From an uncultured Candidatus Saccharibacteria bacterium (GTDB lineage Bacteria > Patescibacteriota > Doudnabacteria > UBA920 > 2-02-FULL-46-11), in contig CAZSSD010000001.1 in NCBI GenBank assembly GCA_964609765.1, forward strand, positions 45,282 through 109,281: a DNA stretch of 64,000 bases, read 5' to 3'. The notes under the pieces were generated by a model. It was not told where the DNA came from and made no database searches. It was given only the letters and a program-made list of their open reading frames with translations. The position numbers and the translations under genes were made by a program. Positions 1,883-46,031 of the stretch are shown here, piece by piece (positions within the stretch are counted from its first letter, which is position 1; every line of letters starts with the position of its first letter).

Positions 1883-1887
1883 ATATT

Positions 1888-2778
1888 ATGCCCAAACGTG
1901 AAGGTACGCCCCGAGACCCACATGAAAACAATCAAGATGAATCCGCTAAAGAGCCGTCTGATATTAGCTTATTCAGGCATAGCCTCTCTTCTTACCGAAC
2001 ATATCGAGATATCGCTGGCTCGGAAAACCCTTTGCGAGCCCTCGATCCAGAAAATCAACTCGGTCCAGATTTAACGGAAAAAGGTGCAGAATTTGCGAGA
2101 GAAGAGGCAGAAAAGTTTTTTGACGCGCTTGATCCAAAGCAAGATATTTTATTTTTTGCCTCCAGTAACGAACTGCGCGCGATCGAAACGACCAATATAT
2201 ATCGACAAGTGGCACACCAACGCGGTTTTGAAGTTATTAAGGTTGCCAACCCAAGAAGCGGACATGCCCTGGAAATAGGTAATGGCGAAATAAGAGTTGT
2301 AAAAAACTTATCGCTATACCCGAGAAATAAAAGTAATGTTGTTATTGATAGCGTTTTAGGTCCGCCCCATCAAAGACCGCCAATTAATTGGGAGGCGATT
2401 GCTGACCCTGAACTAAAGGCAAGGTACGAGCAAGCCGCAGCGATAATTGCTGCTGATGATCGCGGCTCCTTTGGCGCTAACCTGTTGGCCCACAGCGAAA
2501 AGATCAAAAAATTATTTCCAGAATTATCCTCGGCCACTGATCTGTATAGGCAATTTAAAAATATTGTTCGGTTAGTGCGTTTTGGCATTGAGAAAGCGCG
2601 AGCATCAGGACTTAAGAAAAGAGTGAAAATATTGGCGTTTGGCCATGAAAACTATTTGCTGCCTGCGCTTGAGGAATTATTCCAAGAAGAGGAGATCAGG
2701 AATTGTGAAATTATTGATTTTTCATTGAGAGAAGATAGTATTATGGCGCGCTTCAGAGGCAAAGATAGGGAAATCTAA
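1888..2778 (+). CDS. hypothetical protein (296 aa) embedded in the PEP-utilizer paralog array
   Basis: Long ORF with ATG start, tightly spaced with its neighbours. No motif recognised by eye. Confidence 0.5.
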   Translation: MPKREGTPRDPHENNQDESAKEPSDISLFRHSLSSYRTYRDIAGSENPLRALDPENQLGPDLTEKGAEFAREEAEKFFDALDPKQDILFFASSNELRAIETTNIYRQVAHQRGFEVIKVANPRSGHALEIGNGEIRVVKNLSLYPRNKSNVVIDSVLGPPHQRPPINWEAIADPELKARYEQAAAIIAADDRGSFGANLLAHSEKIKKLFPELSSATDLYRQFKNIVRLVRFGIEKARASGLKKRVKILAFGHENYLLPALEELFQEEEIRNCEIIDFSLREDSIMARFRGKDREI

Positions 2779-2793
2779 TATGGATACGTATTT

Positions 2794-27015: not shown

Positions 27016-27017
27016 TT

Positions 27018-27110
27018 GGAGAGGTAGCCAAGCGGCCAAAGGCGCCGGGGTGTTACTCCGGTGATCGGGTCAATACCTGGTCTGCGTGGGTTCGAATCCC
27101 ACCCTCTCCA
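27018..27110 (+). tRNA. class II (long variable arm) tRNA, Tyr/Ser-like D-arm; the anticodon loop reads gUGUUAc (apparent GUU)
   Basis: Acceptor GGAGAGG/CCTCTCC plus discriminator A. D-arm GCC-AAGCGGCCAAA-GGC. Anticodon stem CCGGG/TCCGG. 24-nt variable arm. T-arm GTGGG-TTCGAAT-CCCAC. No encoded CCA. Confidence 0.75.
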
Positions 27111-27285
27111 TGAAGTACTGGGCAGTGGTCTCCCTTCCGTTGCCTAGAGTTGGAGGAGTAATTCCTTTTCGGAGCGCAGTGCCTCGCGTGGTGACGGGTG
27201 AAACCCGGGACTCCCAAGCCTAGAGCTTGGGAATAATACCGGGGAGTAAGTCCCGATCCAGCGAGCCTGCCCCTCCGGGCACAAA

Positions 27286-30793: not shown

Positions 30794-30914
30794 GCGCTAA
30801 TTGTATCTGTATTTTTTATTTTTTGCCATCCACTTGGCGTACGCGGTATCTTTTATGGTATAATAAAATCAGATTTTAAATATCCGAAACTAAGGAAAAT
30901 TATCACAAACCAAA

Positions 30915-33584
30915 ATGAGAAAGTTTAGGCCGGGAGCCGGAGACGGAAAAGACGAACAAGACGAAGGAGTTCGCTTTTGGGATCCGGAAGGCAAGCTGAA
31001 AAAAGTAACACCGGGCCGAATACGGGAAAAAGAGGGCAAAGAACCAAGCAGGCCTATTTTTATTAGAGGGTCCATGGAGAAGCCGGAATTTTTTCCCTAT
31101 GGCTACGACCAGCCATGGTTATCAGAACGCACCGCCGGCCTAGACAAGCTAACAGTACCCGAGCTTGAAGTCGAATTGAGCAAACTTGAACTCCTTTTGG
31201 AAGGCCTTAACCGCGGTGAAGCCCAAAGAAAGGGCAGTTTCCGAGAGCAATTATTGCTGGCTGAACGGATAAGCGCGATTAAGGCATTATTGGCAACCGC
31301 TGATAGAATCAAGCCCATGGCCGCGGAAAGTAAGGTTGCAGATACGTCATCTGTTGTTGAGCAGGTTTTCGAGCATCCAGAAGTTATTGAACAAGAGCCC
31401 ATACTCGTCGAGCTTATTAGAAAACATGTAATTCAAGACCTTAAGGAATTAAGCCAAAAGGAGCTCGATATGGAGGCCACGGCGATGGTTCAGGAGATAA
31501 GGGCCTTGGGTCTGCGTAAAAAAATTGAACCGCGGTTAGAGCAGGCCTACGAGTGGGTCTTGGCTGAAAAGGAGAACCGCCTCAAGGCCAACAGGCTTGA
31601 GGGTGATGATTTTACGCCTCCGGTTGATGCCACAGAGCGTTTTGTGATCCCGGCCGCATATTTGAGCAATCCTGATTTGGCGTTGTATCCCGCCGCCTTG
31701 GTTCGCGAATCAGACCAAGCCGAATTGGAGGGCTTGCGGGACCATGTTGCCAGTCAGATTAAAGATGCGGAAGAATGGCCGGACTCTAAGAAAAAAAGGG
31801 CAATGTTTGCCATACTCAAGAGGCGCCTAGAACAACTGGAATCTGAAATACAAAGTCGCCTGCAGCGACTGGAATCTCAAAAACAAAGGCGTGATGCCAA
31901 AATAAGAGCTGAAGAAGAAAAGTATTGGCACGGGCCAAAAATCCTATATGATGGCCGTGAAAAAGAACTGACTCTGGAAGAGCAAGTTGCCTGGTTGGCC
32001 AGCGAGATTAGGCATGCGAGCACCCGGATGCTGAAAACCAAAGCACAAGTGGAGCCGCGCGAGCGATACATTTCCCAACTTAAAAAAGCACTTATCAGAA
32101 AACAAGAAGAGTTGGTTGTAACCAAACGATATGTGGGCGAACCAAATGGCGAGCCTGCGGCCGAGCCCGCGGGGGAAGCGGGCGAGGTGGCTAGACCCGC
32201 GGCCATAGATTGGCGCGCTGACTTAAGCGACGAAATCGAGCGGGGTACCATCAATCTCCCTTCTGCGCAGGAGTTGGAGGGCTCCACGCCCGATCAGCTC
32301 AACGGCATTGTCACTAAAGTATTGCCCTCTATTCGAAGGCGGCTGACCCGCGATCATCAGGAGGACCCGGCCGAACTGCGTAGAAAATTAGATGCGGTTA
32401 CGGCCTATGAGGAGCAGGTTTTAGCGCCTGTTTTGCAAGTGGTTCAGGACCGAGCCAACCAAGCTAAAAGCAAGCCGGCGACCGAAGCGCGGGCTGAAAA
32501 TGACGCTACTCCCGTTACTGAAAAACCTACTCCTGCCAGCCGAGGGCGCGGCCGGCCTCGAAAGGAAGTCCAAGCAGAAGATCAAAGCACCGTTAGACTT
32601 CGCCAAAAACTCGCTGATCTGAATACAGAAATCGAAACCAGAGAGCGCCAGAAGGCAGAACTGGTAGAGCGGCAGAAGCGGCTGACCGCAGCTTTTGATA
32701 ATTTAAAGGAGTTGAGAGACTTTATAGATACAATCGAACTCGGCCAGGGCGAACCTACCGAGAAAGAAACGCAAGCGGTTGACCAACTTGTTCGCAAAGC
32801 CTTTGCCGCGCTTAACAGCCTGGTTCTGGTAGAATATACATCACTTGACTACCGCAAAAAAATAGAAAAAGGCAAAAAGGAAATTCTAAAGTTAAGGTTG
32901 GAACCGGGCAAGTTAATAGATGTTGATTTTGTCAAAATGGAAGCTCGCGCCGAAAACGGCGATTTATTGGATACACTATTCGTTTCCGCGGACGGACAAC
33001 TGGGGCTCAACAGACCAAAGCAAAAGCCTATCCGGGAGGTGGAAGCCATGCGTATTATTTTGGGCGATCTTAGGGCGATCGCATTGAATTTTAGAGATTT
33101 GGTTGGCAGTGAAAGGGTTCAAGTTCGTAGGGAACTTGGTTATTTGGGGGATAAGGTGCTTGCACCACTTTATGCGGCGCGCGATAAATTTATCGGCATG
33201 CTCGCTACCCGAAGACCCGAGCAGGCAGCGGCAGGAGAAAAAGGTAAAAGTGGGCGACCGGGTAAGCGCGAGGGCAGAAAAGAAGTTCCGCCTCGTTCCG
33301 CGCAAGCTGTTCCGGCCGAGACTCCTCCAGCACCCGAAGCTCGAGCCAGCGGCAATGAAACCGATGCCGAGAAAATCCGCAAAAGCTTCGCTTCGTTATT
33401 TGCGGTAGCGGCGCGGCGAGCCGGTGGGGTGGGCAAAACTTTTAGCATCCAAGGGCCGCAAGGTGTTATTAGTGGTGAAATGTTGGACATGCATAGTATT
33501 TCGGTGGCGCGTAAAACTCCCGAAGGCCAAGAGGTCGAAAAAGGCATCATTACCAACGACGGGCACTTTATTCCCAGCAAGTAA
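30915..33584 (+). CDS. giant hypothetical protein (889 aa), highly charged coiled-coil with an AT-hook-like GRGRPRK
   Basis: Extended-TGn -10 box TGGTATAAT at 30855. K/E/R-rich heptad-like segments and an RGRGRPRK motif. First gene of a co-directional cluster. Confidence 0.6.
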   Translation: MRKFRPGAGDGKDEQDEGVRFWDPEGKLKKVTPGRIREKEGKEPSRPIFIRGSMEKPEFFPYGYDQPWLSERTAGLDKLTVPELEVELSKLELLLEGLNRGEAQRKGSFREQLLLAERISAIKALLATADRIKPMAAESKVADTSSVVEQVFEHPEVIEQEPILVELIRKHVIQDLKELSQKELDMEATAMVQEIRALGLRKKIEPRLEQAYEWVLAEKENRLKANRLEGDDFTPPVDATERFVIPAAYLSNPDLALYPAALVRESDQAELEGLRDHVASQIKDAEEWPDSKKKRAMFAILKRRLEQLESEIQSRLQRLESQKQRRDAKIRAEEEKYWHGPKILYDGREKELTLEEQVAWLASEIRHASTRMLKTKAQVEPRERYISQLKKALIRKQEELVVTKRYVGEPNGEPAAEPAGEAGEVARPAAIDWRADLSDEIERGTINLPSAQELEGSTPDQLNGIVTKVLPSIRRRLTRDHQEDPAELRRKLDAVTAYEEQVLAPVLQVVQDRANQAKSKPATEARAENDATPVTEKPTPASRGRGRPRKEVQAEDQSTVRLRQKLADLNTEIETRERQKAELVERQKRLTAAFDNLKELRDFIDTIELGQGEPTEKETQAVDQLVRKAFAALNSLVLVEYTSLDYRKKIEKGKKEILKLRLEPGKLIDVDFVKMEARAENGDLLDTLFVSADGQLGLNRPKQKPIREVEAMRIILGDLRAIALNFRDLVGSERVQVRRELGYLGDKVLAPLYAARDKFIGMLATRRPEQAAAGEKGKSGRPGKREGRKEVPPRSAQAVPAETPPAPEARASGNETDAEKIRKSFASLFAVAARRAGGVGKTFSIQGPQGVISGEMLDMHSISVARKTPEGQEVEKGIITNDGHFIPSK

Positions 33585-33598
33585 TTTACCTACTCAAA

Positions 33599-36199
33599 AT
33601 GTCAGATCCTATTCAACCGGGTTCGCCAATTGATCCTACTTCAGCCGAGACAGGCAGTGAGCTTTCTGACGCAGCTCATCTAGTCTCTAGTTTGCGTCAA
33701 AACATTGAAGAGGTTTCGGCTATGGTTGCCGGCGTTTCCGCAAAGAAAGCGCCTTTGGCTGATTTTTTCCCCATTTGGCAGCGTGTTAAGCAGATACGTG
33801 AACAATTTAAACAGTTACCTGATGTCCCGCTTTGGCAGGACGAACAAACGCAATTATACGAGGCCTATGAAGCCATTCGTTATGGCCGCTATCAAGAATT
33901 TTTACGCGGTGCACTTGCTGACGCCCTTCAAGAGCTAAATCCCGATTGGCCTGAATCAGAAGTAAATCGCTACCGCAACACAATGTCTTTGCCAGAAATG
34001 CAGGATAAAGTTCTCAATGCTGCAAGACTGGTACGTAGATTGAACGAGAATTTAGATTTTCTCCGGGGCGTACTATCTCACGCACCCGAGCTTAAAATTT
34101 TGGAAAATATGGAGACTTTGCTCGCGGCCCAAAGCGAAATTGAAGACATTATAGATCAGTTGCAAAGCACTCTTGAAAGCGGCACCACGCCAATCAATAC
34201 GGGCTTAGTGGCGGAGTTGCGCGAGCGCGTTAATAATGTAAAAAAAGACCTCGCAGATTTAAACCGAAAAGCATCAGAGGAGGGTCAAGTTCAGCCTGCT
34301 GCAGAGTCGGCGCCAGTGGAAACAGAACAGCCAGTTCCGGCTGTAGTTACTGTCGAGCCGTCTGCGGCAACGCCGTCGGCGGAGCGGGAAGCCATTGAAA
34401 TAACCGGTTCGCTGGCTAAAAAAATGGAAAATATTTACGCCAACTTGCAGGACAAGGGTGTTAATGTTCCATATGGGTTATACCATTTTGAATTTAACGG
34501 GACCGATGTAGCTTTCTATGTAACTGCTGATTTTGAGGGTCAGGGCCGGTATGTGGGAATAACATCTACCGAAAAAGGACGCTCGGTACAGGTTGATTTC
34601 CGGCTCTATCTTGATTTGGGCAAAGTTGAATTACGTAAAGGAAGCGACAAACAAATTGTAACCGGCGAGCCGGCCATGGCTACGCTCGAGGACCTATTGG
34701 TTAAGCTGGAAAGCGGTACGGGTAAAAAATTTATAAGCGAACCGGCCCGGACTGTGGCGGAAACCCAAGAGCCTTCGCCCACGGATTTGGACGCAGCTTT
34801 GCTACACGAGCAGGAGGAACCGGCTATGCCCGAGGCCGCGGTAACAGAGGCAAGAGAAATTGGGCGGCCGCAGCCTGCTGAAATTGCCGCATCGGGATGG
34901 GAGAATCTTGTTATGCCGTCAACTTCGCTGCGGGCGCCGCTCAATGTTATAGAGCGATCGGACGGCACCCATGCTATCTACATCAGAGCAGGCGCGGAAA
35001 TAGACCACATAGCTGTCGGCGGCATCAGACATAATTTATTTCCTGAAGCCGAGGCTTATGAAAGATTAGAAACAATTGAACCGGCCATAGTGCGCATTCA
35101 GCCCACCACAACCGCCGGCGAAGTCACCTATAGCGTGGTCAAGCAAGGCGTGGTCAAGCAAGCTGGAGAAGCTGAACTAAGACCGGCCTCTCCCTCTGGC
35201 CTGGCCGCGCAACCCGCTTTGGGCGCAGAAATAATTGCGGAAGCGCCGACAACCGAGATGGAACCGGCGCCGGTTGAGGCGACTCCGACCCCGCAAGCCC
35301 CACCTGCTCCCGAGGAACGCGAAGAAGATGTAGCGGCAGTTCCTGATGCTGCCCAACCCGAACCAGAACCCCAACCAGAACCAGAACCTATTAGACCGGA
35401 ACGGCAGCAAACTTTTGATATGGCGGAATTTGCCGCGCTGGCGGCTGAATTCGCGCGGGAGGCGGATAAAGAAGATTATTACACCTGGGAAATGGGTCTT
35501 GCCCGCTTACCCCAAGAGCTTATCGACAGTTCAGAAGAGAGATTAAAACGAATCAGAGTGATTATTGATGAGTTTGGGCATTTAATTGGGCTAGAGGCAA
35601 AAGTTAAAGATGATTTAGGTTACGAGCTTCGTATTTCTGTTCAAAAAAGCGCTTTCAGTAGTTCGGCAAAAGACGGCGTGCGGGTAGTTTTAAACTTTGC
35701 CGACAAGGATATGAAAAGCATAACCTGGAATTTTGTCGACGATGGCTATATTTCTTTTAGCGGATGGTTGGGTAAAGACCCTTTACCTGATTTTGCCAGC
35801 AAACACAATCTGACTAGTGTCCAAAAGGATGCTCTGGCTGTTTCTGAATTTGAAAGATTGATTATGCCCCTAAAGGGGCGGCTTGAGGAAGTTGATAAAC
35901 AAAAACAGATAGCCGCCGCCGAAGCAGAACTAGAAAAAGAAAGAGAAAAAGAAAGAGACGACTATGAGCCGATAACTAGGGAGCAGAGATTAGTAAATCA
36001 AACGAAGTATAATAGGTTAGCGCCGCTTGCGGCTAAAGCTAAAAACGGCAGACTTGAACTTCCTAATGGACAAGTTTTGGAATTCTTGCCCGAGGCGGGC
36101 GAGAGCAGGCACAGAAATATTTTAGTAATTAACGAGGCAGATGGGACCTATGTAGTTATTGACGAAGAAGGCCATCGTCTGGCTATTGATTTAGAATGA
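33599..36199 (+). CDS. giant hypothetical protein (866 aa) with a PEPEPQPEPEP low-complexity linker
   Basis: 15-nt gap after the previous gene. Acidic, with a Pro/Glu repeat encoded by a CCAGAA tandem repeat at about 35346-35400. Confidence 0.6.
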   Translation: MSDPIQPGSPIDPTSAETGSELSDAAHLVSSLRQNIEEVSAMVAGVSAKKAPLADFFPIWQRVKQIREQFKQLPDVPLWQDEQTQLYEAYEAIRYGRYQEFLRGALADALQELNPDWPESEVNRYRNTMSLPEMQDKVLNAARLVRRLNENLDFLRGVLSHAPELKILENMETLLAAQSEIEDIIDQLQSTLESGTTPINTGLVAELRERVNNVKKDLADLNRKASEEGQVQPAAESAPVETEQPVPAVVTVEPSAATPSAEREAIEITGSLAKKMENIYANLQDKGVNVPYGLYHFEFNGTDVAFYVTADFEGQGRYVGITSTEKGRSVQVDFRLYLDLGKVELRKGSDKQIVTGEPAMATLEDLLVKLESGTGKKFISEPARTVAETQEPSPTDLDAALLHEQEEPAMPEAAVTEAREIGRPQPAEIAASGWENLVMPSTSLRAPLNVIERSDGTHAIYIRAGAEIDHIAVGGIRHNLFPEAEAYERLETIEPAIVRIQPTTTAGEVTYSVVKQGVVKQAGEAELRPASPSGLAAQPALGAEIIAEAPTTEMEPAPVEATPTPQAPPAPEEREEDVAAVPDAAQPEPEPQPEPEPIRPERQQTFDMAEFAALAAEFAREADKEDYYTWEMGLARLPQELIDSSEERLKRIRVIIDEFGHLIGLEAKVKDDLGYELRISVQKSAFSSSAKDGVRVVLNFADKDMKSITWNFVDDGYISFSGWLGKDPLPDFASKHNLTSVQKDALAVSEFERLIMPLKGRLEEVDKQKQIAAAEAELEKEREKERDDYEPITREQRLVNQTKYNRLAPLAAKAKNGRLELPNGQVLEFLPEAGESRHRNILVINEADGTYVVIDEEGHRLAIDLE

Positions 36200-39100
36200 G
36201 CAGTCACAACCAAGATTCCGAATTGGATGAATTAGAAAGAATGGCGCGCGAAGCGTTGCGAGCTCAAGGCGTGGACCCGGATGCTGCGTCGTCTGACGCT
36301 GAAGTTCCTTTATCGCCAAGCGAGCCGGCAAAGCCGCGCCGAAGGCGCGCAAGTGGCGCTGCGGCGGACGCCTTAGTGGCGCGGGCAGGGACCAGTTCGG
36401 GTTTATCCGAACCAGCGGTTCCGCCTGTACCCGAGGCAGCCCCGATGCCGCAAGCAGCGCCAAAGCGTAGGAGGGCTAGTGGTCAGGAAGCGGACGATCT
36501 GGTCAGCAGGGCTGGCGCTCCTACCGCCCAGCCGCCGAGAGTGAGAGTAGCAGAAACCAAGTCGGAGCCAACAATACCCGAGCCCGTGCCGGTCGCTCCC
36601 ATACCGCGTATAGAAAGTCCGTGGCTTGAGCCCGCGGCCGCCAAACCGCCGGAGCAAAAGACGGCCGGGGATGAAGAAATTATTGATCGCGAAACAATGG
36701 AGGAGATGCGCGGGCGCATTGAATCGGACCTCTCAACCCTGTCTCAAATGTCCGAGCCCGAGCTTGATCGGGTAAAGATTTCTATCGAGTCTTTTCAGAG
36801 ATTTACGGCTGATAAGGATTTACAGACAATTGAGCTGCATTGTTTTATAGCGGACGCGCTTTCACGGGTGGAAAGCGCGCGCCTGAAATTGAGAAATGGC
36901 GGAGATAAGAGATTGCCAGCGGAACAGGAGCCAACCAGGCCAGAAACGGAACTGGAAAGAGAATTGCGAGGCGTCATGGCTGAAGTTTTGTCTGAAGTCG
37001 GTTTAAGGCCAGATGAGGTCAAGGCCATAGATTTTGGAAAAATCTGGGCCTACCTTAAGAAAGTTGGGGGAACAAAAATAGATCTTAAAGATATGCTGAT
37101 TGCCGGCGGTCCGGCCATCGTTGTTGCGGGTATTTTGCGCTGGACATTACGGACTAAACTGGGCTGGGCACCGGAAACAGCCGGCGCCGTGGTGGGCGGC
37201 CTGTTCGGCTTGGCCAGGGGTATAAGCGCCGAAGATAGGCGCCAGCAGACGCGCCGGACAAAATATCAGGAAATTCTGCACGAGTTTACGGCCACGGGCG
37301 GATTTGACGGCTTGTGGGCAATGGCTGATAAGGATATTTTAAAGGCCATGACTACGGTTTTGGCCATGCGCAAGACAGTGGAAAAGGCCGAGGGCGAGCT
37401 TGACCCGGCACGTTATCAGGAATTGACGGATTTAATCACCAAGCAGGAGATTTTACTATTGCGCCGGAAAGAGTTGCGGGAGAGCCAAGGCGTGGAACGC
37501 TTGGTTAAATTTATGGCGGTGACGCGCGGTGTAAACCTTGATGGCTTGCAAAGCCAGCGTAAATTACTGCTGCACCGTTTTATTCTAGACCGGACTGTCG
37601 GCGCTGAAGTAAAAATAGCGGCCGGACAGCGGCGGGATTATAAAGCCGTGGCCGGCAAGGCCGTGGCCGGTGCGGCCATTGGCTGGAGCATGGCGGCTTT
37701 GACTGATTTGCTCTTTGATTGGGCAAGAGTCCGATTTTTTAGCGGTGCCCCGGCCGAAGCGGCGCCGGAGGGTGCCGGACCGAGTGAAGCACCAACCGGA
37801 GCGGAAGGAGCGCCTGCCGAGCCAACCACACCTCCGGCTGAAACAACTGACACGTCAACTGCGCCCACTCCCACAGAGCAGCCGCCAGCGCCGAAACCAG
37901 ACATAAAAGCAGCACCGGCGCCCGCCGCGGCTGAACCGGCTGAACCTACTACGCCCGCTGCCGGCGACTTAGAGCGTGCTTTAACGGCCGCGTCGGACCG
38001 AGCCCAAGACATAGTCAAAGAAGCGCGCGAAGCGGCCGCCGCCGCGCGCGCGGCCATGGCCAATGCGCCGAGCGAACAAGCTCGTACCGCTGCTGAACTC
38101 GCGGCCCAAAAAGCGGAGGCCGCCGCCCAAGCCGCCGAGCGAGCCGCGGCTGAAGTAGGCAGGGCCACTACGCGCGAAGCGGCGCAAAAGGCGCTTCGGG
38201 AAGTGGCCGGCAAAGTGGCGGAAGCGCAAATGGAGCAGCAAGCGGCCGAGGCGGCCACGGCCGCAGGCAAGGCCATTGAAATTGCGGGCGAAAAGATTGT
38301 GATACCCGGGACGCTCATGGATGTCACGAGCGAGGCCGGCAAAAACGGCATCTCCTATCTGGTGCGGGATCAGCTTGAATATATTGCCGACCAAGTTAAG
38401 GGTAATGCGGAAGTGTTGCAAAAGATATTCGGTCCGAGCATTGATGCCGCGGATGTGGCCGAGCGATCGGCGGACTTTAGGCAGGCTTTGCGGGAAAAAA
38501 TGTTTGCGGTTTTGGAAAACAATGAGGTGGACGGTAAAACCATTCTTAAGTTAGATGAGGCAGGGAAGGTAATTTCTGAAGTACGTTTAGGCGCCGCTGA
38601 TGTTAATACCGTGTCCATAGAATACGACCCCTCTAATCCGAGTGGCTTTGCGGTGAAGGTCGAACCGCCGACCTATGTTGAACCTGTTGCGCCGGCCCAA
38701 CCTCTCGCGCCGCCAGCAGAAGCGGCGGCGTCACCGGCCGCCTGGCCGAGGAAATTTTCGCTTGAAGACTTACTGAAGTTCAGAGAGGCCGTTAATTCGC
38801 CCAATTTCCCGGAGTCGGTAGATAAATTGGGCGGGCATTTTAATCTTCAAGAGCCGTCCTTGCCGCCGGACGGAGTTCCGCAGCCGCCTGATTATTTGCG
38901 CGAGGATTTCTGGCAGGGCCACGCGCCAACTAAAATGGGTCTTTTATTCGAGGCGCCCACGACAGCCATGGCCGCGGCGCGCCTGTGGTTTTTAGGAAGT
39001 ATGGTCAGCGCCGGACTTTACGGCGCGCATGAGGCCACTCAAGCCGTCGTCTCCCGAGTCTCGTCAAAGACTGAAAAAACTCCCGGGGCCGGCCTTGCCC

Positions 39101-39501
39101 CGGAGGCGAAAAAGTTTGTCAGATTGCGCGAGCGCCTCAAAGCCAAAGATAAATCACGCATGAGCAGCCGCGAAAAAGTGGTCACGGCCTTAATTTATCT
39201 CAATCCCAAAGATTTTGTTAACCCCGGCGAGCGCACCCTGACGCCTTTGGAATTTTACGGCGATAAAGAAACGCCGGGCGTTTATCGCTTAATTAAAAAT
39301 CACAACTGGCCGGCGGTATTTAATAGGCTATTGGCTTTGAAACTTGAGAAAGGCCCGGAAAAACGTGAGCTTATTGATGAGGCCGCGGCCTTGCTGGGCG
39401 ATTTGGAAGGCGCCCGCGTGGCCTATATCAATTATAAAAACGGTCGCCAGTCTAAAGAGACGGCCGCCATTGATCGCGGCGCGTCGCGGCTCGCGGCCTA
39501 A
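36196..39501 (+). CDS. giant hypothetical membrane protein (1101 aa) with Ala/Pro/Thr-rich linkers
   Basis: 4-nt overlap with the upstream gene. Internal TM helices (GGPAIVVAGILRW; AVAGAAIGWSMAALTDLLF) and a long APAEPTTPPAETTDTSTAPTPTEQPPAPKP region. Confidence 0.6.
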   Translation: MSSHNQDSELDELERMAREALRAQGVDPDAASSDAEVPLSPSEPAKPRRRRASGAAADALVARAGTSSGLSEPAVPPVPEAAPMPQAAPKRRRASGQEADDLVSRAGAPTAQPPRVRVAETKSEPTIPEPVPVAPIPRIESPWLEPAAAKPPEQKTAGDEEIIDRETMEEMRGRIESDLSTLSQMSEPELDRVKISIESFQRFTADKDLQTIELHCFIADALSRVESARLKLRNGGDKRLPAEQEPTRPETELERELRGVMAEVLSEVGLRPDEVKAIDFGKIWAYLKKVGGTKIDLKDMLIAGGPAIVVAGILRWTLRTKLGWAPETAGAVVGGLFGLARGISAEDRRQQTRRTKYQEILHEFTATGGFDGLWAMADKDILKAMTTVLAMRKTVEKAEGELDPARYQELTDLITKQEILLLRRKELRESQGVERLVKFMAVTRGVNLDGLQSQRKLLLHRFILDRTVGAEVKIAAGQRRDYKAVAGKAVAGAAIGWSMAALTDLLFDWARVRFFSGAPAEAAPEGAGPSEAPTGAEGAPAEPTTPPAETTDTSTAPTPTEQPPAPKPDIKAAPAPAAAEPAEPTTPAAGDLERALTAASDRAQDIVKEAREAAAAARAAMANAPSEQARTAAELAAQKAEAAAQAAERAAAEVGRATTREAAQKALREVAGKVAEAQMEQQAAEAATAAGKAIEIAGEKIVIPGTLMDVTSEAGKNGISYLVRDQLEYIADQVKGNAEVLQKIFGPSIDAADVAERSADFRQALREKMFAVLENNEVDGKTILKLDEAGKVISEVRLGAADVNTVSIEYDPSNPSGFAVKVEPPTYVEPVAPAQPLAPPAEAAASPAAWPRKFSLEDLLKFREAVNSPNFPESVDKLGGHFNLQEPSLPPDGVPQPPDYLREDFWQGHAPTKMGLLFEAPTTAMAAARLWFLGSMVSAGLYGAHEATQAVVSRVSSKTEKTPGAGLAPEAKKFVRLRERLKAKDKSRMSSREKVVTALIYLNPKDFVNPGERTLTPLEFYGDKETPGVYRLIKNHNWPAVFNRLLALKLEKGPEKRELIDEAAALLGDLEGARVAYINYKNGRQSKETAAIDRGASRLAA

Positions 39502-39503
39502 AA

Positions 39504-39818
39504 TTGGACAAAAAAATGGACACACCCAAACAAATTGCGGACAAATTATTCAAGGAACTCAATTTGCAGAACCAGCCGCCCAAACGCCAACAGGAAGTGC
39601 TGGAAGAGCTGGTTGAACATTTTTCGCAGGTCATCATTACAACCATGCTGCGCCAAGTTAATGACGAGCAGTTTGCCGATTTGGAAAAGGCGCTCAACTC
39701 GACCGATTGGCAAAATGAGGTTTTGCGCATTGCCGGGGAGGTTCCCGGCCTGGCCGAAGCCATAGAAAACAACATTCAGAGCGAATATGATATGATGAAG
39801 ACGGTTATGAACTCTTAA
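39504..39818 (+). CDS. small acidic helical hypothetical protein (104 aa)
   Basis: Tightly packed between giant gene 3 and the next ORF. TTG at 39504 or ATG at 39516. Confidence 0.45.
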   Translation: MDKKMDTPKQIADKLFKELNLQNQPPKRQQEVLEELVEHFSQVIITTMLRQVNDEQFADLEKALNSTDWQNEVLRIAGEVPGLAEAIENNIQSEYDMMKTVMNS

Positions 39819-39824
39819 AACAAA

Positions 39825-40487
39825 ATGTCGTCAATATTTAATCGCAGCGAGCAAAAAGATTATAAGGTTGAACCGATTGCGCCGCCCCCGCGTCCGCACT
39901 TGGAACAGGACCCGGACAAGCTTAAGGCACCCGGCCGGGCAGAGCTTGAAAATTTCGCGGCCCAAGGCTGGCTGGATAAAGCCAACATCTTTGCCTACGA
40001 GCGCGGCGGCGAAAGTGGCTGGGTCTTTTATACAACCGATGTTTTGAAAGATAAAATGGCCGCCGAGCTGCGCGCGGCCGGTTACAATGATATTCATATT
40101 GTCGCTATCAGTGAAAACGAATATGCCATTTATATCGCTAATCCGGCGGTGCGGGCCAGGCGTGAAGGCGAGAATTGGTTTCGCATGCGCGAGCGGCGCG
40201 TATCCACCGAGGCCGTCGCGGCGAGTAGTCTTGATCATCCAGCCGCTAACGCCGGCCCGGAAAGGTTGGCCGGCCCGGGCAGCCAAGATTTAAGTGACGT
40301 TGAACCTCCGCCTGCGCGGCCGGCAAGCGAGACGCAAAAGACGGTAATTGAAAAAATCGGCCCCGAAAATTTTTTACGCTTAACCATAAACCGGTTTAAT
40401 TCAAGCCGCGATCCCGGCTTTGACGAAGTTGACCTGGAGCAAGCTTTTTTTACGGCCCGGGCATATATTGAACAGAAACAAAATTAA
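39825..40487 (+). CDS. hypothetical protein (220 aa)
   Basis: ATG start; 2-nt gap before the downstream ATPase gene. Confidence 0.5.
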   Translation: MSSIFNRSEQKDYKVEPIAPPPRPHLEQDPDKLKAPGRAELENFAAQGWLDKANIFAYERGGESGWVFYTTDVLKDKMAAELRAAGYNDIHIVAISENEYAIYIANPAVRARREGENWFRMRERRVSTEAVAASSLDHPAANAGPERLAGPGSQDLSDVEPPPARPASETQKTVIEKIGPENFLRLTINRFNSSRDPGFDEVDLEQAFFTARAYIEQKQN

Positions 40488-40489
40488 AT

Positions 40490-43048
40490 ATGTTTGAAGA
40501 TTCGCCCACAAATTATTACGCAGCAAACGGCGGCGGCGCCGACTGGCTTTGGTATTTGGTTTTAGTTATAGGTTTGGTGTTCTTGGCTATGGTTTTTTGG
40601 AAACGCCGGGCAATCTTAAGCCGGGCCAAACTATTCCGTTCGCTTGATCTTGTTTTTTTTGAAGTTCTCATGCCCCGCGAAACCGCGGAAGATAAATTCG
40701 GCCAAGAATCCACCAAACAAAACGAAAAAGAAATAATCGGTATCGCCGAACAACTTTATACCACGGTTTATTATCCGTCGCCGCCCTGGTACAAGCGGTT
40801 TTGGACCGGGACGGATTCAATATCATTTGAGATTTCCGCTTTCCAAAAAAAGATCCATTTTTATGTAACCTGCCCCCGGGCGCTGGTGGGCGCGGTGGAG
40901 AGGCAGATACACGCGCAGTATCCCAAAGCGGCGGTTGAAGAAATAACCGGCTATCAGATATTTCGCAAGGGCAATTTTGTGGCGGCCACCGAGCTTAAAC
41001 TGCAAAAAAATTACGTCTATCCGATTAAGACTTACGCCGAACAAAATTCTGATCCGCTTGACGCCATTACTAATGCCATGAGCAAATTGACGGGCGAGGA
41101 GTCCATGTCGTTGCAGCTCACGCTCATACCCGCGCACGCTAAGTGGGGCAGGCGGCCGCGCCAATATGCGTCCGAAATTCAGCAAGGCAAACGGCCGGGC
41201 CATGTTATTATCCACCCCGCCCATAAAGTGGCCAGGGAGCTTGGCAAAACGGTGGGACAAGGCGTGGGGCAGCTTTTTGGCGCGACCGATAAAGCCGGCA
41301 ATTTGCCGGATCAAGACAACAAGCCCATCAATCTTACGCCCATGCAGCAAGAGATTGTAAAAAAACTTGAGGAAAAGGCGAGCAAAATATCCTGGCATGC
41401 CAATATCAGGCTAATTGCCGCATCGGAAACAAAGGTTATGGCCGAGAGCCACCTCAATACTTTGTTGGCGACTTTTACCCAGTACAGTATGCCGCCTTTT
41501 AACGGTTTTAAAATTCGCCACAAGAATGTAAAAAGAATTACCAAAGACTTTATTTTGCGCAATTATAACAGGAGCAAGATGATTCTGAATACGGCGGAAC
41601 TGTCTTCAATCTGGCATCCGGCCACCAAGTTTATGGAGACGCCCAATATTCAGTGGTTGACGAGCCGCAAAGCGCCGCCGCCGCCCAACTTGCCGGACAG
41701 CGGCACCCTTTTGGGCATTAACGTTTACCGTGATGTGGAGACTCCGGCTTACATCCTCGATGAAGATCGAATGAGGCACGTTTATATTATCGGCCGCACC
41801 GGCGTTGGTAAAACCGAGATTATGCAGAATATGGCCATTCAGGATATCCGCGCCGGCAAGGGTGTTTGCGTGGTTGATCCGCACGGCGAGTTTATCGAAA
41901 ACGTTCTGTACGCCATACCCAAGGAAAGGGCCGAAGATGTTGTCCTTTTTGAGCCAGCCGATATGGCCCGCCCGTTTGGTTTAAATATGCTTGATGTCAA
42001 GAATGAGGCGCAAAAGGACTTTGTGGTGCAGGAGATGATCGCCATTTTCGAGAAACTATTCCCGCCGGAGGTGATCGGCCCGATGTTTGAACATAATATG
42101 CGCAATGTTATGCTGACCCTCATTGCCGATCACAATGATCCGGGCACGCTTGTTGAGATACCGCGCATGTTTACTGATCCGGCTTTTCAGCGTATCTATA
42201 TCAATCGGGTTAAGGATCCGACCGTACTTTCTTTTTGGGAACAGGAAATGGCCAAGACCAGCGATTTTCATAAGTCTGAAATGCTGGGTTATCTTATTAG
42301 CAAGGTGGGCCGTTTTGTGGAGAATACGATGATGCGAAATATTATCGGCCAAAAGCGCAACTCCTTCGATTTCAGGGAAATAATGGATAACGGCAAGATT
42401 TTATTGGTCAATCTTTCAAAAGGCAAGATTGGCGAGCTTAATGCCAAGCTTTTGGGTTTAATTATCGTCAGCAAACTGCAAATGGCGGCGCTCTCACGGG
42501 CCGATCAGCCCGAGGCCGAGCGTCGCGAATTTTACCTTTATGTGGATGAGTTCCAGAATTTTGTGACCGACTCATTCGCCACCATACTTTCCGAGGCCAG
42601 AAAATACAAACTGGGGTTAAATATTGCCCACCAATACCTTTCGCAGCTAACCGCCGAAAAACCCGGCTCGTCCGCGCAGGATACCAAGGTGCGCGACGCC
42701 GTTTTTGGCAATGTCGGCACGATGGTGGCCTTCAGAATAGGCGTGGAAGATGCCGAGGTCATGGCCAAGGAATTTGCGCCGACGTTTTCCGAATTTGACG
42801 TTGTTAACATTGAACGTTTTAACGCCTACATTAAATTAATGGTTCATAATACGGTCACGCGTCCGTTTAGCATCAAAACGCTGAAGAGCGAAAAGTTTAA
42901 TGATCGGGAAACCGTGGAAGCTATCAGACGATTGTCGCGCTTGAAGTACGGACGCCCGCGCGAGCAGGTAGAAGCGGATATTCTTGAGCGCAGCCAGCTG
43001 CAAAAAATATCTCTGGAACCCAAAGACGTAAGAGGCCAATTTGCCTAA
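40490..43048 (+). CDS. membrane-anchored FtsK/HerA-superfamily P-loop ATPase (DUF87/VirB4-VirD4-like conjugation/secretion ATPase)
   Basis: N-terminal TM helix (WLWYLVLVIGLVFLAMVFW). Walker A IIGRTGVGKTE followed by VVDPHGEF (HerA/TraG-type motif). Walker B FYLYVDEFQNF. A C-terminal ...RKYKLGLNIAHQYLSQL as in TraD/TraG/VirB4 C-termini. Confidence 0.65.
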   Translation: MFEDSPTNYYAANGGGADWLWYLVLVIGLVFLAMVFWKRRAILSRAKLFRSLDLVFFEVLMPRETAEDKFGQESTKQNEKEIIGIAEQLYTTVYYPSPPWYKRFWTGTDSISFEISAFQKKIHFYVTCPRALVGAVERQIHAQYPKAAVEEITGYQIFRKGNFVAATELKLQKNYVYPIKTYAEQNSDPLDAITNAMSKLTGEESMSLQLTLIPAHAKWGRRPRQYASEIQQGKRPGHVIIHPAHKVARELGKTVGQGVGQLFGATDKAGNLPDQDNKPINLTPMQQEIVKKLEEKASKISWHANIRLIAASETKVMAESHLNTLLATFTQYSMPPFNGFKIRHKNVKRITKDFILRNYNRSKMILNTAELSSIWHPATKFMETPNIQWLTSRKAPPPPNLPDSGTLLGINVYRDVETPAYILDEDRMRHVYIIGRTGVGKTEIMQNMAIQDIRAGKGVCVVDPHGEFIENVLYAIPKERAEDVVLFEPADMARPFGLNMLDVKNEAQKDFVVQEMIAIFEKLFPPEVIGPMFEHNMRNVMLTLIADHNDPGTLVEIPRMFTDPAFQRIYINRVKDPTVLSFWEQEMAKTSDFHKSEMLGYLISKVGRFVENTMMRNIIGQKRNSFDFREIMDNGKILLVNLSKGKIGELNAKLLGLIIVSKLQMAALSRADQPEAERREFYLYVDEFQNFVTDSFATILSEARKYKLGLNIAHQYLSQLTAEKPGSSAQDTKVRDAVFGNVGTMVAFRIGVEDAEVMAKEFAPTFSEFDVVNIERFNAYIKLMVHNTVTRPFSIKTLKSEKFNDRETVEAIRRLSRLKYGRPREQVEADILERSQLQKISLEPKDVRGQFA

Positions 43049-43109: not shown

Positions 43110-43138
43110 TTGACAATACCTCTAAAAGAAACTAAAAT
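43110..43138 (+). promoter_or_regulatory. sigma70-like promoter TTGACA-17 nt-TAAAAT, followed by a ~170-nt GC-rich structured leader
   Basis: Consensus -35 box with 17-nt spacing. The leader contains the hairpins CTGTGGC-tttg-CCACGG and GGGAAAAC...GTTTTCCC. Confidence 0.45.
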
Positions 43139-43315
43139 AAATCAGCTTATATTTGGTTTTGAAAAAATATTACTAAATAATAAAAAGATCCGTTTTGCGA
43201 GCCTGTGGCTTTGCCACGGCGAGCAATCCTTACCGAAAGGGAGGGAACGTAGCGAAGCGGAGTTGGGAAGGGAAAACGCAGGCTCGTAGAGCCGCAAGGT
43301 TTTCCCTCACAAAAA

Positions 43316-43993
43316 ATGTCTGATATTTCAAATTTGGCGCGCATTCAGCAGCTGCTGGAAAGCGCCGAGCAAGAGCTGCAGTCGGCCAAACAACTTTTAC
43401 AGCAAGTGATGGGCGAAATTCCAGAAGCTGGTAGTTCGTCCGATCCAGACGTGCTGATATCTAAAGCTAGGACGCTTTCTGTTTCGGAGGGCGGTAAGAT
43501 TATTGAAGGTATTTTCGACGGTCAGAATATGGTTGGCCCGGATGGCCGCATGTATCCTGTGCCCGCTAATTACGCTTCTAAAAGCAAACTGGTGGAAGGT
43601 GATGTCTTAAAACTGACCATTGCCCCGGACGGCAGCTTTATTTACAAGCAAATCGGACCGGTTGAGCGCAAGCGGGTGGTGGGCATATTGGTGCAGGACG
43701 AAAAGGGTGATTATCGGGTGGTGGCCGAGGGCAAGTCTTATCGGGTTTTATTGGCTTCCTTGACTTACTACAAATCAGAACCGGGGGACCAGGTGACTTT
43801 ATTGGTACCAACAGAGCATGAGTCAGCTTGGGCGGCGGTTGAAAACGTTATTAAAAAGGGCGCCGAAGAATTTCCTCAAACCACCGGTCCGCAGTATCAA
43901 ACCGAAGCTTCTCCAGACGAAGCCCGGCCCCAAGACGAAGGTTCGCGACAGGTTAGGATTTTAACTGACGACGATGATCTGTTGGGGGAATAG
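43316..43993 (+). CDS. hypothetical protein (225 aa), N-terminal coiled coil
   Basis: ATG start downstream of the structured leader. Confidence 0.5.
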   Translation: MSDISNLARIQQLLESAEQELQSAKQLLQQVMGEIPEAGSSSDPDVLISKARTLSVSEGGKIIEGIFDGQNMVGPDGRMYPVPANYASKSKLVEGDVLKLTIAPDGSFIYKQIGPVERKRVVGILVQDEKGDYRVVAEGKSYRVLLASLTYYKSEPGDQVTLLVPTEHESAWAAVENVIKKGAEEFPQTTGPQYQTEASPDEARPQDEGSRQVRILTDDDDLLGE

Positions 43994-44002
43994 CCATTCG
44001 GA

Positions 44003-44482
44003 ATGCTCAATATAAATCTATTTAAACAGTTTTTGAAATTTGGCGCGGTCGGGGTGCTCAACACTTTGGTTGATCTAGGCGTGCTTACTATTTTGATTTA
44101 TTTTGAGCCTACGGGCAAGGCGGGTTTGCTTTATGCGCTTTTTAAGGCCATCGCATTTATTGTGGCTAATATTAACAGCTACGTCTTTAATAAATTTTGG
44201 ACGTTTCGTGAGGATGGCGGGCAAAAGCGCACAACGGTTGAGTTTTCGGAATATTTTTTGGTTAGTCTGATTGGCATGTTGATTAATGTAAGCGTGGCTT
44301 CGCTTGTGGTTAATTATTTCCTGATCTATGAATACCATCCGGTTCTGGCGGTATTGCAAAAGCCCTGGCCGCAGATATCGGCGCTCTTTGGCACTGCCTT
44401 TGGCCTGGTCTGGAATTTTCTGGGCTATAAATTCCTTGTATTTACCCGCAAAAATAAGCCCGCGCCAGCGCCTAAATACTAA
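44003..44482 (+). CDS. GtrA-family small membrane protein (polyprenyl-sugar flippase-like)
   Basis: FLKFGAVGVLNTLVDLGVL...NKFWTFRE is a GtrA-family signature. Four TM helices. Confidence 0.7.
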   Translation: MLNINLFKQFLKFGAVGVLNTLVDLGVLTILIYFEPTGKAGLLYALFKAIAFIVANINSYVFNKFWTFREDGGQKRTTVEFSEYFLVSLIGMLINVSVASLVVNYFLIYEYHPVLAVLQKPWPQISALFGTAFGLVWNFLGYKFLVFTRKNKPAPAPKY

Positions 44483-44561
44483 AAATAGAACATCAATTTA
44501 TGTTTGGTTCGGACCAATCCAAGTTCGGGCTTTTTTATTTTTAGTCTGCTATAATATGGGT

Positions 44562-46031
44562 ATGTCTAAAGCGCTTTATCGGCTATACCGCCCCCAAAAA
44601 TTTTCAGATGTGGTTGGCCAGGAACATGTTATTACTACCCTCGCCAATCAGGTTAAAAGCGGTCAAATTGGCCATGCTTATTTATTTACCGGCTCGCGCG
44701 GTGTCGGCAAAACCTCGGTGGCGCGCATTTTAGCGCGGGCGGCCAATTGTCAATCTCCCGCTATTTTTGAACCAGATAACGCCTGCGACGCCTGCCAGGA
44801 CATACTTCAAGGCAAAAGCTTGGATTTGATGGAAATAGACGCCGCTTCGCATACCGGCGTGGACAATATACGGGAAATTATCGATCACCTAGCTATCCCG
44901 CCAAGCCGTGCCAAATATCGTACTTATATTATTGACGAGGTGCATATGCTCTCACGCGGCGCTTTTAATGCGCTCTTAAAAACTCTTGAAGAGCCGCCCG
45001 CGCACGCTTTGTTCATATTGGCTACGACCGAGGCGCATAAGGTGCCGGCGACCATTATTTCGCGCACGCAAAGATTTGACTTTAAAAAACTGACCGACGC
45101 CGAAATTGCCAAACAGCTGAATTTAATTGTCCAAAAAGAGGGCTTGGCAATTAAAGCCGAGGTTTTAGAGGCCATTGCCCAGTCTGTTGACGGAAGCTTG
45201 CGCGACGCTCTGGTCCTGCTGGAAAAGGCCATTCATTTGGCCCGGTCAGAGCACACCACCGCCGACGATATTCAAAAACTGCTCGGGATTACGCCCATTC
45301 GTTTCCGCCAAGAATTTTTGACACTCGTTAAAGAGAAAGACTTGGCCAAAACTGCCAAATTCTTGAGAGATTTGTCCGAGCAGGGTTATAATTTAGAGCA
45401 GTTCACGCGCGATTTTTTGGAATATGTGCGCAATGCCTTAACCGCAAACATGGATCGCGAATTGGCAAAGCTCGCCGATTATTTCTTGGAAAGTTATGCG
45501 CAATTAAGAATCAGTCCGGTGCCGGAGCTGCCCTTGCTCGTGGCGGCCGTAAAGTTTGCTGAAAGTTCAGGAGAGGCGGCAAAGATTGAGGCCGAGCCGA
45601 ACGAGTCAAGCAGCGGGTCCGTCCCAAAAGCCGCCGCCAATAATAAGGAAGAAACGAAGGTGGTTTTAAATCAGGCCAAAGTTTCCGAGCACTGGCTTGA
45701 AATACTGGAAAGAGTGCGGGCCTATAATCAATCGCTTTTAACGGCGCTTAAGTTGGCTAAACCGGTCGGCCATGTTAATGGTACGATTACTATCGCTTTT
45801 CCTTATAAATTTCATGCGGACACAGTGAACGCCGCTAAAAACCGTTTGATAATCGAACGCGTTTTGGAAGAGCTTTTTGGCCACAAGATGCAGGTAAGAT
45901 GCGTGACGGAAAAAGAGGCGGGTATGGCTGGCCATGAGCATAGGCAGGCAGAAACGGAAAACAAGAGCCGGATGAACAATGATTTGCTCAACAGCGCCTT
46001 AGATATTTTGGGCGGGGAAGTCGTTAATTAG
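44562..46031 (+). CDS. dnaX: DNA polymerase III subunit gamma/tau
   Basis: LYRLYRPQKFSDVVGQEHV...GSRGVGKTS (Walker A), a C4 Zn module (CQSPA...CDACQ) and an SRC motif. A TATAAT box at 44549 supports the ATG 44562 start rather than the 44328 ORF start. Confidence 0.85.
   Translation: MSKALYRLYRPQKFSDVVGQEHVITTLANQVKSGQIGHAYLFTGSRGVGKTSVARILARAANCQSPAIFEPDNACDACQDILQGKSLDLMEIDAASHTGVDNIREIIDHLAIPPSRAKYRTYIIDEVHMLSRGAFNALLKTLEEPPAHALFILATTEAHKVPATIISRTQRFDFKKLTDAEIAKQLNLIVQKEGLAIKAEVLEAIAQSVDGSLRDALVLLEKAIHLARSEHTTADDIQKLLGITPIRFRQEFLTLVKEKDLAKTAKFLRDLSEQGYNLEQFTRDFLEYVRNALTANMDRELAKLADYFLESYAQLRISPVPELPLLVAAVKFAESSGEAAKIEAEPNESSSGSVPKAAANNKEETKVVLNQAKVSEHWLEILERVRAYNQSLLTALKLAKPVGHVNGTITIAFPYKFHADTVNAAKNRLIIERVLEELFGHKMQVRCVTEKEAGMAGHEHRQAETENKSRMNNDLLNSALDILGGEVVN

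Follow-up and report, generated by a model that had tools for sequence, protein, structure and literature searches.

The 64,000-nt stretch of contig CAZSSD010000001.1 analysed here (the window) carries on its forward strand a compact cluster of six co-directional genes (30915-43048), in which three giant proteins of low complexity and two small proteins precede a membrane-anchored ATPase related to those of type IV secretion systems (T4SS). In this locus, a putative operon on the chromosome of a Doudnabacteria-like Patescibacterium, the ATPase is the sole recognisable engine. The organism is a bacterium of the Candidate Phyla Radiation, as a preliminary description of this DNA had proposed, and has Doudnabacteria as its nearest relatives. 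The favoured explanation, with a probability of about 0.55, is that of an orphan coupling-type motor associated with lineage-specific adaptors, substrates or scaffolds, and not of a self-contained apparatus.

The six open reading frames (ORFs) were found where the preliminary description had placed them, with the same sizes, strand and tight packing (gaps of 2-14 nt and one 4-nt overlap). The three giants, of 889 aa (30915-33584), 866 aa (33599-36199) and 1101 aa (36196-39501), are followed by a 104-aa ORF (39504-39818; TTG start, with an ATG four codons later), a 220-aa ORF (39825-40487) and the 852-aa ATPase (40490-43048), all on the + strand. The successive junctions measure 14 nt, -4 nt (an ATGA overlap), 2, 6 and 2 nt. 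The promoter-like extended -10 element announced ahead of the cluster is also present. Some 50 nt before the first ATG, TGGTATAAT (30856-30864, +) is a perfect match read directly in the sequence, and was not listed by a consensus promoter scanner because a good -35 is absent. A second promoter-like site, TTGACA-17-TAAAAT (43110-43138, +; 11 of 12 consensus matches), lies directly past the ATPase stop, suggesting that the next gene forms its own transcription unit and that the 3' boundary of the operon is located there. No Rfam family matched within the cluster. Four of the six starts have an A-rich AAAATG/AAATATG context (30908-30917, 33592-33601, 39818-39827 and 40483-40492) with no Shine-Dalgarno-like sequence nearby, the sole AAGGA near the cluster starts being 18 nt upstream of the first giant gene; these contexts may reflect initiation independent of Shine-Dalgarno pairing in this lineage.

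The long ORFs of the giants are real genes, as judged by codon adaptation and an independent assembly. Reading frames of 2.6-3.3 kb at approximately 50% GC are beyond chance, and in-frame codon adaptation reaches 0.62-0.64, against 0.50-0.58 off-frame and 0.69-0.75 in housekeeping genes. The Logan assembly of SRR12113383 matches positions 35525-38854 at 99.97% identity. GC content is raised across the cluster at the first and second codon positions and ordinary at the third, because of the abundance of Ala, Pro and Gly codons. Tandem DNA repeats were rejected as the origin of the low complexity, given that the cluster has only three tiny arrays, all within the 866-aa gene.

The terminal ATPase and its family

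The earlier view of the terminal gene as a membrane-anchored ATPase of the FtsK/HerA superfamily, of the kind that serves T4SS, is upheld. One strong N-terminal transmembrane (TM) helix (aa 19-37, nt 40544-40600; Kyte-Doolittle 2.38) is followed by a predicted cytoplasmic alpha/beta domain resembling the VirB4 N-domain (Pfam DUF8128; aa 54-375, nt 40649-41614) and by a nucleotide-binding domain of VirB4/VirD4/HerA type with a putative helical insert (aa 406-835, nt 41705-42994). The Walker A (GRTGVGKT, 41792-41815) and Walker B (LYVDEF, 42536-42553) motifs, encoded like the rest on the + strand, are invariant in 34 aligned sequences. Structure prediction was applied to this protein, for which the alignment was admissible.

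In Pfam, the ATPase matches TrwB_AAD_bind (33.5 bits, cut-off 20.5) and DUF87 (31.8 bits, cut-off 23.2), and its score for the FtsK_SpoIIIE motor domain falls far under the threshold. The DUF8128 call (PF26449) derives from the precomputed annotation of a 100%-identical entry (P0001), the local Pfam copy not having returned it; by these precomputed domains the protein has the architecture of PF26449 followed by PF10412/PF01935. Among 5.8 billion proteins searched, more than 1,800 homologues were recovered, at 55-60% identity. The 120 highest-ranking ones, full length and 54-72% identical, stem mostly from Candidatus Doudnabacteria and other Patescibacteria; all of these carry PF26449 and PF10412, and most also PF01935/PF02534, and those that are named are called 'type IV secretion system DNA-binding domain-containing protein' by NCBI. 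Among GTDB species representatives there are at least 581 matches. The family to which the ATPase belongs as a new member (DUF8128, TrwB_AAD_bind and DUF87) is known and already catalogued, a point on which the earlier reading of a novel apparatus is not supported. Patescibacteria hold 5,713 VirD4-like homologues of type IV coupling proteins (T4CPs) in 2,918 genomes, 148 of them near virB4 (Quinonero-Coronel et al. 2025, PMC12102498), and the ATPase is very probably among these.

The ATPase looks like a T4CP by sequence and like VirB4 by architecture. Its P-loop domain of FtsK/HerA type, with intact Walker A and B, is as expected of a T4CP. However, the TM anchor does not lead directly into the nucleotide-binding domain, an approximately 320-aa VirB4-N-like domain intervening, and no relaxase or DNA transfer and replication module, nor a T4SS, was found alongside it in a Pfam scan of the 39 ORFs of the window. 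Against the NCBIfam TraD/VirD4 equivalogs it scores 53.4 bits for a cut-off of 366 (SXT_TraD) and 43.1 bits for one of 250 (CD1115 VirD4-like). The predicted fold, in turn, joins an N-terminal domain to a C-terminal ATPase domain with the VirB4 fold, which supports the label 'VirB4-like' given to it earlier. The VirB4 sequence families CagE_TrbE_VirB and AAA_10 gave no match to it at E <= 0.1 in Pfam, and NCBIfam VirB4_plasma scored 16.2 bits against a cut-off of 590; as a positive control, the same tool scored a genuine AAA_10 VirB4 of a Bacillus plasmid at 388.8 bits. No VirB3/TcpE, VirB6 or VirB8/TcpC neighbour occurs in the cluster or in the window, where the Pfam scan likewise returned no VirB4 and no integrase. 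With the HerA and defence models of PADLOC, the ATPase shows only a weak mad8/HerA resemblance, with no partner genes.

The giants and the accessory genes in related loci

For the conservation of the neighbourhood, a local comparison was made of the regions around the closest homologues and around those found in 80 GTDB species representatives. The ATPase family in Patescibacteria is a strongly conserved single gene in a housekeeping context, with no relaxase or channel genes nearby. It falls into two clades, one located behind the ribosomal-protein/SecY operon and another located opposite RecR-DnaB-CysS(-CorA), to which the window belongs. The housekeeping flanks are thus RecR-DnaB-CysS or rpl-SecY upstream and GtrA-DnaX downstream. 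In the closest relatives (L001-L003 and L007), which share the RecR-DnaB-CysS flank, the ATPase is 70% and the downstream protein 76% identical, and the 8.6 kb that the giants take up in the window are replaced by only a 147-aa and a 145-aa gene.

In the RecR-DnaB-CysS clade, a DUF5663 gene is usually located one gene 5' of the ATPase, often after one to three large, Cys-free proteins without Pfam matches (424, 670 and 1019 aa in L004; 812 and 827 in L010; 624 and 984 in L012; 798 and 879 in L056; 1029 in L019; 1396 in L015). A pair formed by a giant and a DUF5663 gene occurs in the SecY clade too, either immediately 3' of the ATPase (L044, L068) or 6-9 kb in the 3' direction (L006, L075, L086). 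Altogether, DUF5663 is found on the ATPase strand in 23 loci and in three arrangements, usually beside a Cys-free, Ala/Glu-rich protein of 800-1,500 aa, and a giant adjoins it in 12 of the 19 DUF5663 loci. The linkage of giants and ATPase thus recurs in some relatives, in those three arrangements, and the giants themselves are not conserved in sequence.

The 889-aa giant is highly charged (35% D/E/K/R), rich in E, A, L, R and K, Cys-free and coiled-coil-like; the 866-aa giant is acidic (net charge -62) and modular, with short beta-rich segments between Pro/Glu/Ala linkers; and the 1101-aa giant is Ala/Pro/Glu-rich, with two RRRASG...LV.RAG repeats in its N-terminal region. The motifs reported earlier were all recovered, namely GRGRPRK at aa 544-550 of the first, PEPEPQ, as PEPEPQPEPEP, at aa 587-597 of the second and Ala/Pro/Thr-rich linkers in the third. 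Internal TM helices had also been claimed for the giants. By hydropathy, these reduce to weak Gly/Ala-rich hydrophobic segments of the 1101-aa protein (aa 302-318, 329-343, 489-507 and 930-944; Kyte-Doolittle 1.5-1.7), only two of which exceed the threshold; no TM-like segment was detected in the 889-, 866-, 104- and 220-aa proteins. The three giants also lack a signal peptide.

Searches for relatives of the giants were extensive and negative. Iterated profiles found none among 85 related loci, and family hidden Markov models built from the giants of other loci did not match the proteins of the window. The word-indexed collection of 5.8 billion proteins held no relative of the 1101-aa protein; a concatenation of the three giants, masked for low complexity, also returned nothing from it, a weaker negative in that the self-hit was absent too and the collection thus evidently does not contain these genes. 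A full HMMER search of 1.84 billion cluster representatives with the 866-aa protein recovered nothing beyond a 213-aa fragment of the query itself and three spurious hits to repeat proteins. No relative was found of the 866- or 889-aa proteins in JGI metagenome contigs, or of the 889- or 1101-aa proteins in viral contigs, and none of the three matched PDB sequences or a family of Pfam, NCBIfam, PHROGs or PADLOC. In these four collections no cluster protein matches VirB6, VirB8, VirB9, VirB10 or a relaxase, in agreement with the earlier statement that this is not a canonical T4SS.

The only sequence resemblance detected is that of the C-terminus of the 1101-aa giant (aa 979-1081) to the 145-aa protein of the closest relative, a weak one (BLASTP E 7e-5 in a database of 7 proteins, 30% identity). 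What the giants of the window share with those of other loci is position, composition and architecture, not alignable sequence. The 1101-aa protein, directly upstream of the DUF5663 gene, shares this position and its composition with the giants termed GA and GC in other Doudnabacteria, which are Ala-rich and Cys-free, with one to three weak Gly/Ala-rich hydrophobic segments followed by basic residues. Similarly, the 889-aa protein resembles in composition the GB proteins of L004, L010, L012 and L056 (35% charged, E/A/K/R/L-rich, no TM helix). Alignment of the GA and GC profiles to the 1101-aa protein by hhalign was non-significant (probabilities of 8% and 1.5%), the best of these matches falling exactly on the Gly/Ala-rich hydrophobic hairpins, and neither profile found anything among PDB sequences. 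The giants are a fast expanding and contracting, dispensable part of the locus.

The 104-aa protein, acidic and helical, is probably a divergent member of the DUF5663 family, and its gene is the only accessory gene of the cluster conserved in sequence. An iterated profile seeded with it links 22 other loci, always on the ATPase strand, and recovers the DUF5663 protein of L004 at E 8e-26; this positional orthologue scores 34.2 bits for a Pfam gathering score of 23.7 (DUF5663, PF18908), and the 104-aa protein itself remains below Pfam significance. The acidic 220-aa protein, directly upstream of the ATPase, has sequence homologues only in the closest relatives (L001-L003 and L007). It is the positional equivalent of an acidic, low-complexity ORF of 110-230 aa that lies directly 5' of the ATPase in 78 related loci and is so divergent that BLAST joins close relatives only. 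No VirB1/CwlT-like hydrolase, VirB8/TcpC-like subunit or pilin was matched by the five accessory proteins in Pfam or NCBIfam, and the PDB-sequence search of the giants was negative in this respect as well.

The most strongly conserved neighbour of the ATPase, better conserved than the ATPase itself, is the gene on its 3' side (43316-43993, +), followed by GtrA and DnaX. Its product, of about 200 aa, begins with a coiled coil and has two small beta-rich modules; 65 loci have a homologue 3' of the ATPase (E about 1e-95 to 1e-104, 65-76% identity). The gene is outside the reported cluster and probably outside the operon as well. The protein has no Pfam or NCBIfam match and looks like an unnamed core protein of Patescibacteria. 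Between the promoter-like site and its start lies a leader (43188-43310, +) with a predicted folding energy of -60.6 kcal/mol (z = -4.5; 0 of 200 shuffles as stable), which has no Rfam match and, in a simple alignment, is not evidently conserved in L007 or L004. A conserved helical protein of about 140 aa (L004, 12638-13051) separates the ATPase from the 200-aa protein in 29 related loci. The window and its closest relatives lack it, the gap being filled there only by a 58-59-aa ORF or the structured leader.

The remainder of the window is of housekeeping nature, with aminoacyl-tRNA synthetases, MreB/MreC/PBP2, RecR, DnaB, CysS, GtrA, DnaX, PyrG, Lon and others among the Pfam matches. The tRNA-Asn(GTT) gene at 27017-27111 (+) has 95 nt, about 20 nt above the usual length, and yet is a full Rfam tRNA match, which suggests an insertion, an intron or an atypical arm. 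Positions 779-5704 (+) hold three tandem paralogues of 367, 471 and 501 aa, recognisable in each case only by a C-terminal PEP-utilizers mobile domain and with unrecognised N-terminal regions, in a stretch with a GC content of 0.37-0.41, against approximately 0.49 elsewhere. The longest DnaX ORF (44328-46031, +) shares 155 nt with the GtrA-family gene (44003-44482, +), and it is only from residue ~97 onwards that it matches Pfam, so that dnaX probably starts at a later codon.

Readings of the locus

Under the favoured explanation, the ATPase would be an orphan coupling-type motor or substrate receptor, docked at the membrane and presumably hexameric like its relatives, that descended from monoderm conjugation systems and was kept as a core gene. 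A coupling-type component normally docks on a channel encoded elsewhere; the ATPase could feed the virB4-centred T4SS that most Patescibacteria encode at another location, or else work alone at the membrane. The five upstream genes would be translationally coupled, fast-evolving accessories, thought to act with the ATPase because they appear to be co-translated with it. The giants would most likely be lineage-specific adaptors, substrates or a membrane-proximal scaffold, and not conserved channel subunits; their link to the motor is circumstantial.

Several points weigh against this explanation. Co-transcription of the cluster would follow from the spacing of its genes, and the term coupling protein is applied to the ATPase by analogy with the gene order of plasmids. 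No homologue of the giants was detected anywhere searched, and these proteins would be dispensable for the role of the ATPase, since the closest relative has only the two small genes in their place. Among 43 non-redundant loci with flanks of 8 kb or more to either side, only 11 have a detectable DUF5663 gene within 10 kb, and much of its proximity to the ATPase could be inherited synteny rather than the result of selection. In Southlakia, the T4CP homologue is reported not to be essential and the T4SS to be so (PMC12102498), which argues against obligatory coupling, provided that the Southlakia gene belongs to this DUF8128 family. Also, the view of the present genome spans 64 kb, so that any virB4 T4SS encoded elsewhere in it would lie outside this view.

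A possible, though doubtful, alternative is that the linkage is coincidental. The giants would then occupy a hypervariable slot between cysS and DUF5663/ATPase as unrelated cytoplasmic scaffold, cytoskeletal or disordered proteins, and the ATPase would have an independent housekeeping role, e.g. in DNA uptake, DNA segregation or membrane-protein extraction. Such a slot is consistent with giants that are ORFans (ORFs without detectable homologues), that fall below housekeeping genes in codon adaptation and that are absent from the closest relative, and a housekeeping role with the replication genes (DnaB, RecR, DnaX) or ribosomal/SecY operon that flank the ATPase in all relatives; that half of the family sits in a SecY context with no giant nearby points in the same direction.

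A more specific proposal, that the giants, the DUF5663 protein and the acidic small protein constitute the cargo/adaptor set of an orphan coupling-type ATPase, is unlikely. If true, however, these proteins would be the first candidate substrates (effectors delivered into the host bacterium) and recruitment factors of Patescibacteria T4SS, and the extreme divergence of these proteins beside a motor conserved at 55-70% would reflect an arms race with host bacteria.

The self-contained apparatus envisaged in the preliminary description, a novel secretion or DNA-transfer machine in which the giants replace subunits of VirB6/VirB8/VirB10 type and the ATPase provides the power, is improbable. The operon-like packing of the six genes, the two-domain, VirB4-like architecture of the ATPase, the hydrophobic Gly/Ala-rich hairpins followed by basic residues that the 1101-aa giant has in common with its GA/GC analogues, and the recurrence of giant and DUF5663 pairs near the ATPase in three arrangements are all compatible with it. 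Nevertheless, the cluster encodes no protein with as many as five TM helices, none with a signal peptide and none with a TcpC/VirB8-like or wall-hydrolase domain; two of the three giants are wholly hydrophilic, and in most related loci a giant is lacking within 10 kb. Moreover, the subunits surrounding an ATPase conserved at 55-70% are not expected to be ORFans, or to be exchanged, as in the closest relative with its identical flanking synteny, for genes of about 145 codons; the giants are not conserved components, and the homology of the ATPase is to a gene of the plasmid coupling slot. Of the two outcomes that had together been named in advance as fatal to the apparatus, an ATPase grouping with FtsK was not observed, and giants devoid of a sequence-conserved linkage to the ATPase were.

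That the cluster is the remnant of a mobile element, prophage or defence system, e.g. a HerA/DndH/MADS-type ATPase with effectors, is highly improbable, in view of the housekeeping synteny kept across dozens of species, the absence from the window of integrase, relaxase, repeat boundaries and phage structural genes, a GC rise explained by amino-acid composition, the lack of relatives of the giants in viral contigs and an identity of 55-60% over a class-level clade, which is atypical for defence genes. A prophage or island was rejected on the missing integrase and structural genes and on the origin of the GC rise, and a defence system on the faint mad8/HerA resemblance, the missing partner genes and the synteny.

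The locus bears on the function of the T4SS-related ATPases of Patescibacteria and on what they move. Saccharibacteria cannot grow epibiotically without their T4SS, the function and substrates of which are not known (PMC11665869, PMC12857230), and the thousands of scattered T4CP-like genes of Patescibacteria have been noted only as 'possibly exapted', an exaptation that, according to the authors, 'cannot be ruled out' (PMC12102498). The locus shows that a common Patescibacteria 'T4CP' family has a VirB4-like N-domain and is homologous over its full length to an ATPase adjacent to a putative relaxase in Bacillus conjugative plasmids and to phage proteins. This N-domain, the link to the plasmid coupling slot and the accessory set of acidic protein, DUF5663 protein and hypervariable giants appear not to have been described before. 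The literature search found no paper mentioning DUF8128 or DUF5663, and nothing functional on the VirD4-like genes of phages or on Replic_Relax/DUF87. Should the partners be adaptors or cargo, pull-downs and secretome work would have named candidates in them; otherwise the locus is an ordinary conserved ATPase beside a hypervariable gene slot.

Comparison with known systems

The ATPase has relatives in phages and plasmids. In PHROGs, family phrog_5156 matches aa 106-836 (hmmscan, E 6.6e-90), and tblastn recovered full-length relatives in 41 phage records at approximately 22% identity and 80-86% coverage, among them SPO1-like Bacillus phages, phage G (gp156), Geobacillus phage TP-84 (gp48) and D6E (ORF23). 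The phage homologues that were located (L088 6851-9115, TP-84 gp48; L089 6968-9226, D6E ORF23; L090 5779-8499, Bacillus phage SP8) hold both the VirB4-like N-domain and the P-loop domain, and in temperate siphoviruses the gene is found between the lysis cassette and the integrase/recombination genes. The likeness is one of homology across both domains. The phage genes differ in being accessory, placed after the lysis cassette or among early genes, with no giant or DUF5663 partners annotated next to them.

The strongest functional lead comes from plasmids. With tblastn, monoderm lineages contribute 504 plasmid records with relatives, among them those of Bacillus (259), Streptomyces (62), haloarchaea and Sulfolobus. 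An 886-aa homologue (BLASTP E 1e-47, 24% identity, aa 91-796) heads the conjugation operon of a 24.7-kb Bacillus subtilis plasmid (WP_121549396 on strain MH-1, NZ_CP032854; L091 7782-16105) and of a Shouchella clausii plasmid (NZ_CP012476; L092), where the order of genes is DUF87 ATPase, Replic_Relax, TcpC, TcpE and AAA_10 VirB4. This homologue thus holds the slot usual for a coupling protein, beside a separate, genuine VirB4, its own putative coupling role being deduced from gene order. The ATPases of these Tcp/ICEBs1-type plasmids and that of the window are homologous over their full length (N-domain and P-loop domain; 886 and 852 aa) and share the DUF87 signature. They differ in that conjugation genes adjoin the former, whereas the latter is chromosomal, with housekeeping neighbours and ORFan giants upstream. 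MOB-suite labels both plasmids 'non-mobilizable', despite a seemingly complete Tcp/ICEBs1-type transfer operon, and gives the same label to 376 of the 504 plasmids with a homologue, many of which may be unrecognised conjugative elements.

In canonical T4CPs, such as TrwB of R388, VirD4/Cag-beta and DotL, two TM helices are usual, as is a gene that accompanies a relaxase or an effector system. They do not have the alpha/beta domain of about 320 aa which, in the window ATPase, separates the TM segment from the nucleotide-binding domain. Compared with VirB4 (TrwK of R388; Thermoanaerobacter VirB4 C-domain, 4ag5), the ATPase is distinguished by its lack of a VirB4 sequence-family match and of VirB3, VirB6 or VirB8 neighbours; moreover, Patescibacteria hold a separate bona fide VirB4 clade (PMC12102498).

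The T4SS of Patescibacteria itself (Southlakia epibionticum SEML1_0006-0019; Wang et al. 2023; Quinonero-Coronel et al. 2025) differs from the present locus in combining VirB4 with TrsD, PrgI/VirB3, VirB6, VirB2-like pilins and hydrolases, none of which occurs in the window. Nonetheless, both belong to the same phylum, both are relaxase-less, and the Patescibacteria T4SS and the window ATPase share an evolutionary source in the monoderm conjugation machinery of the mating pair formation type MPF-FATA.

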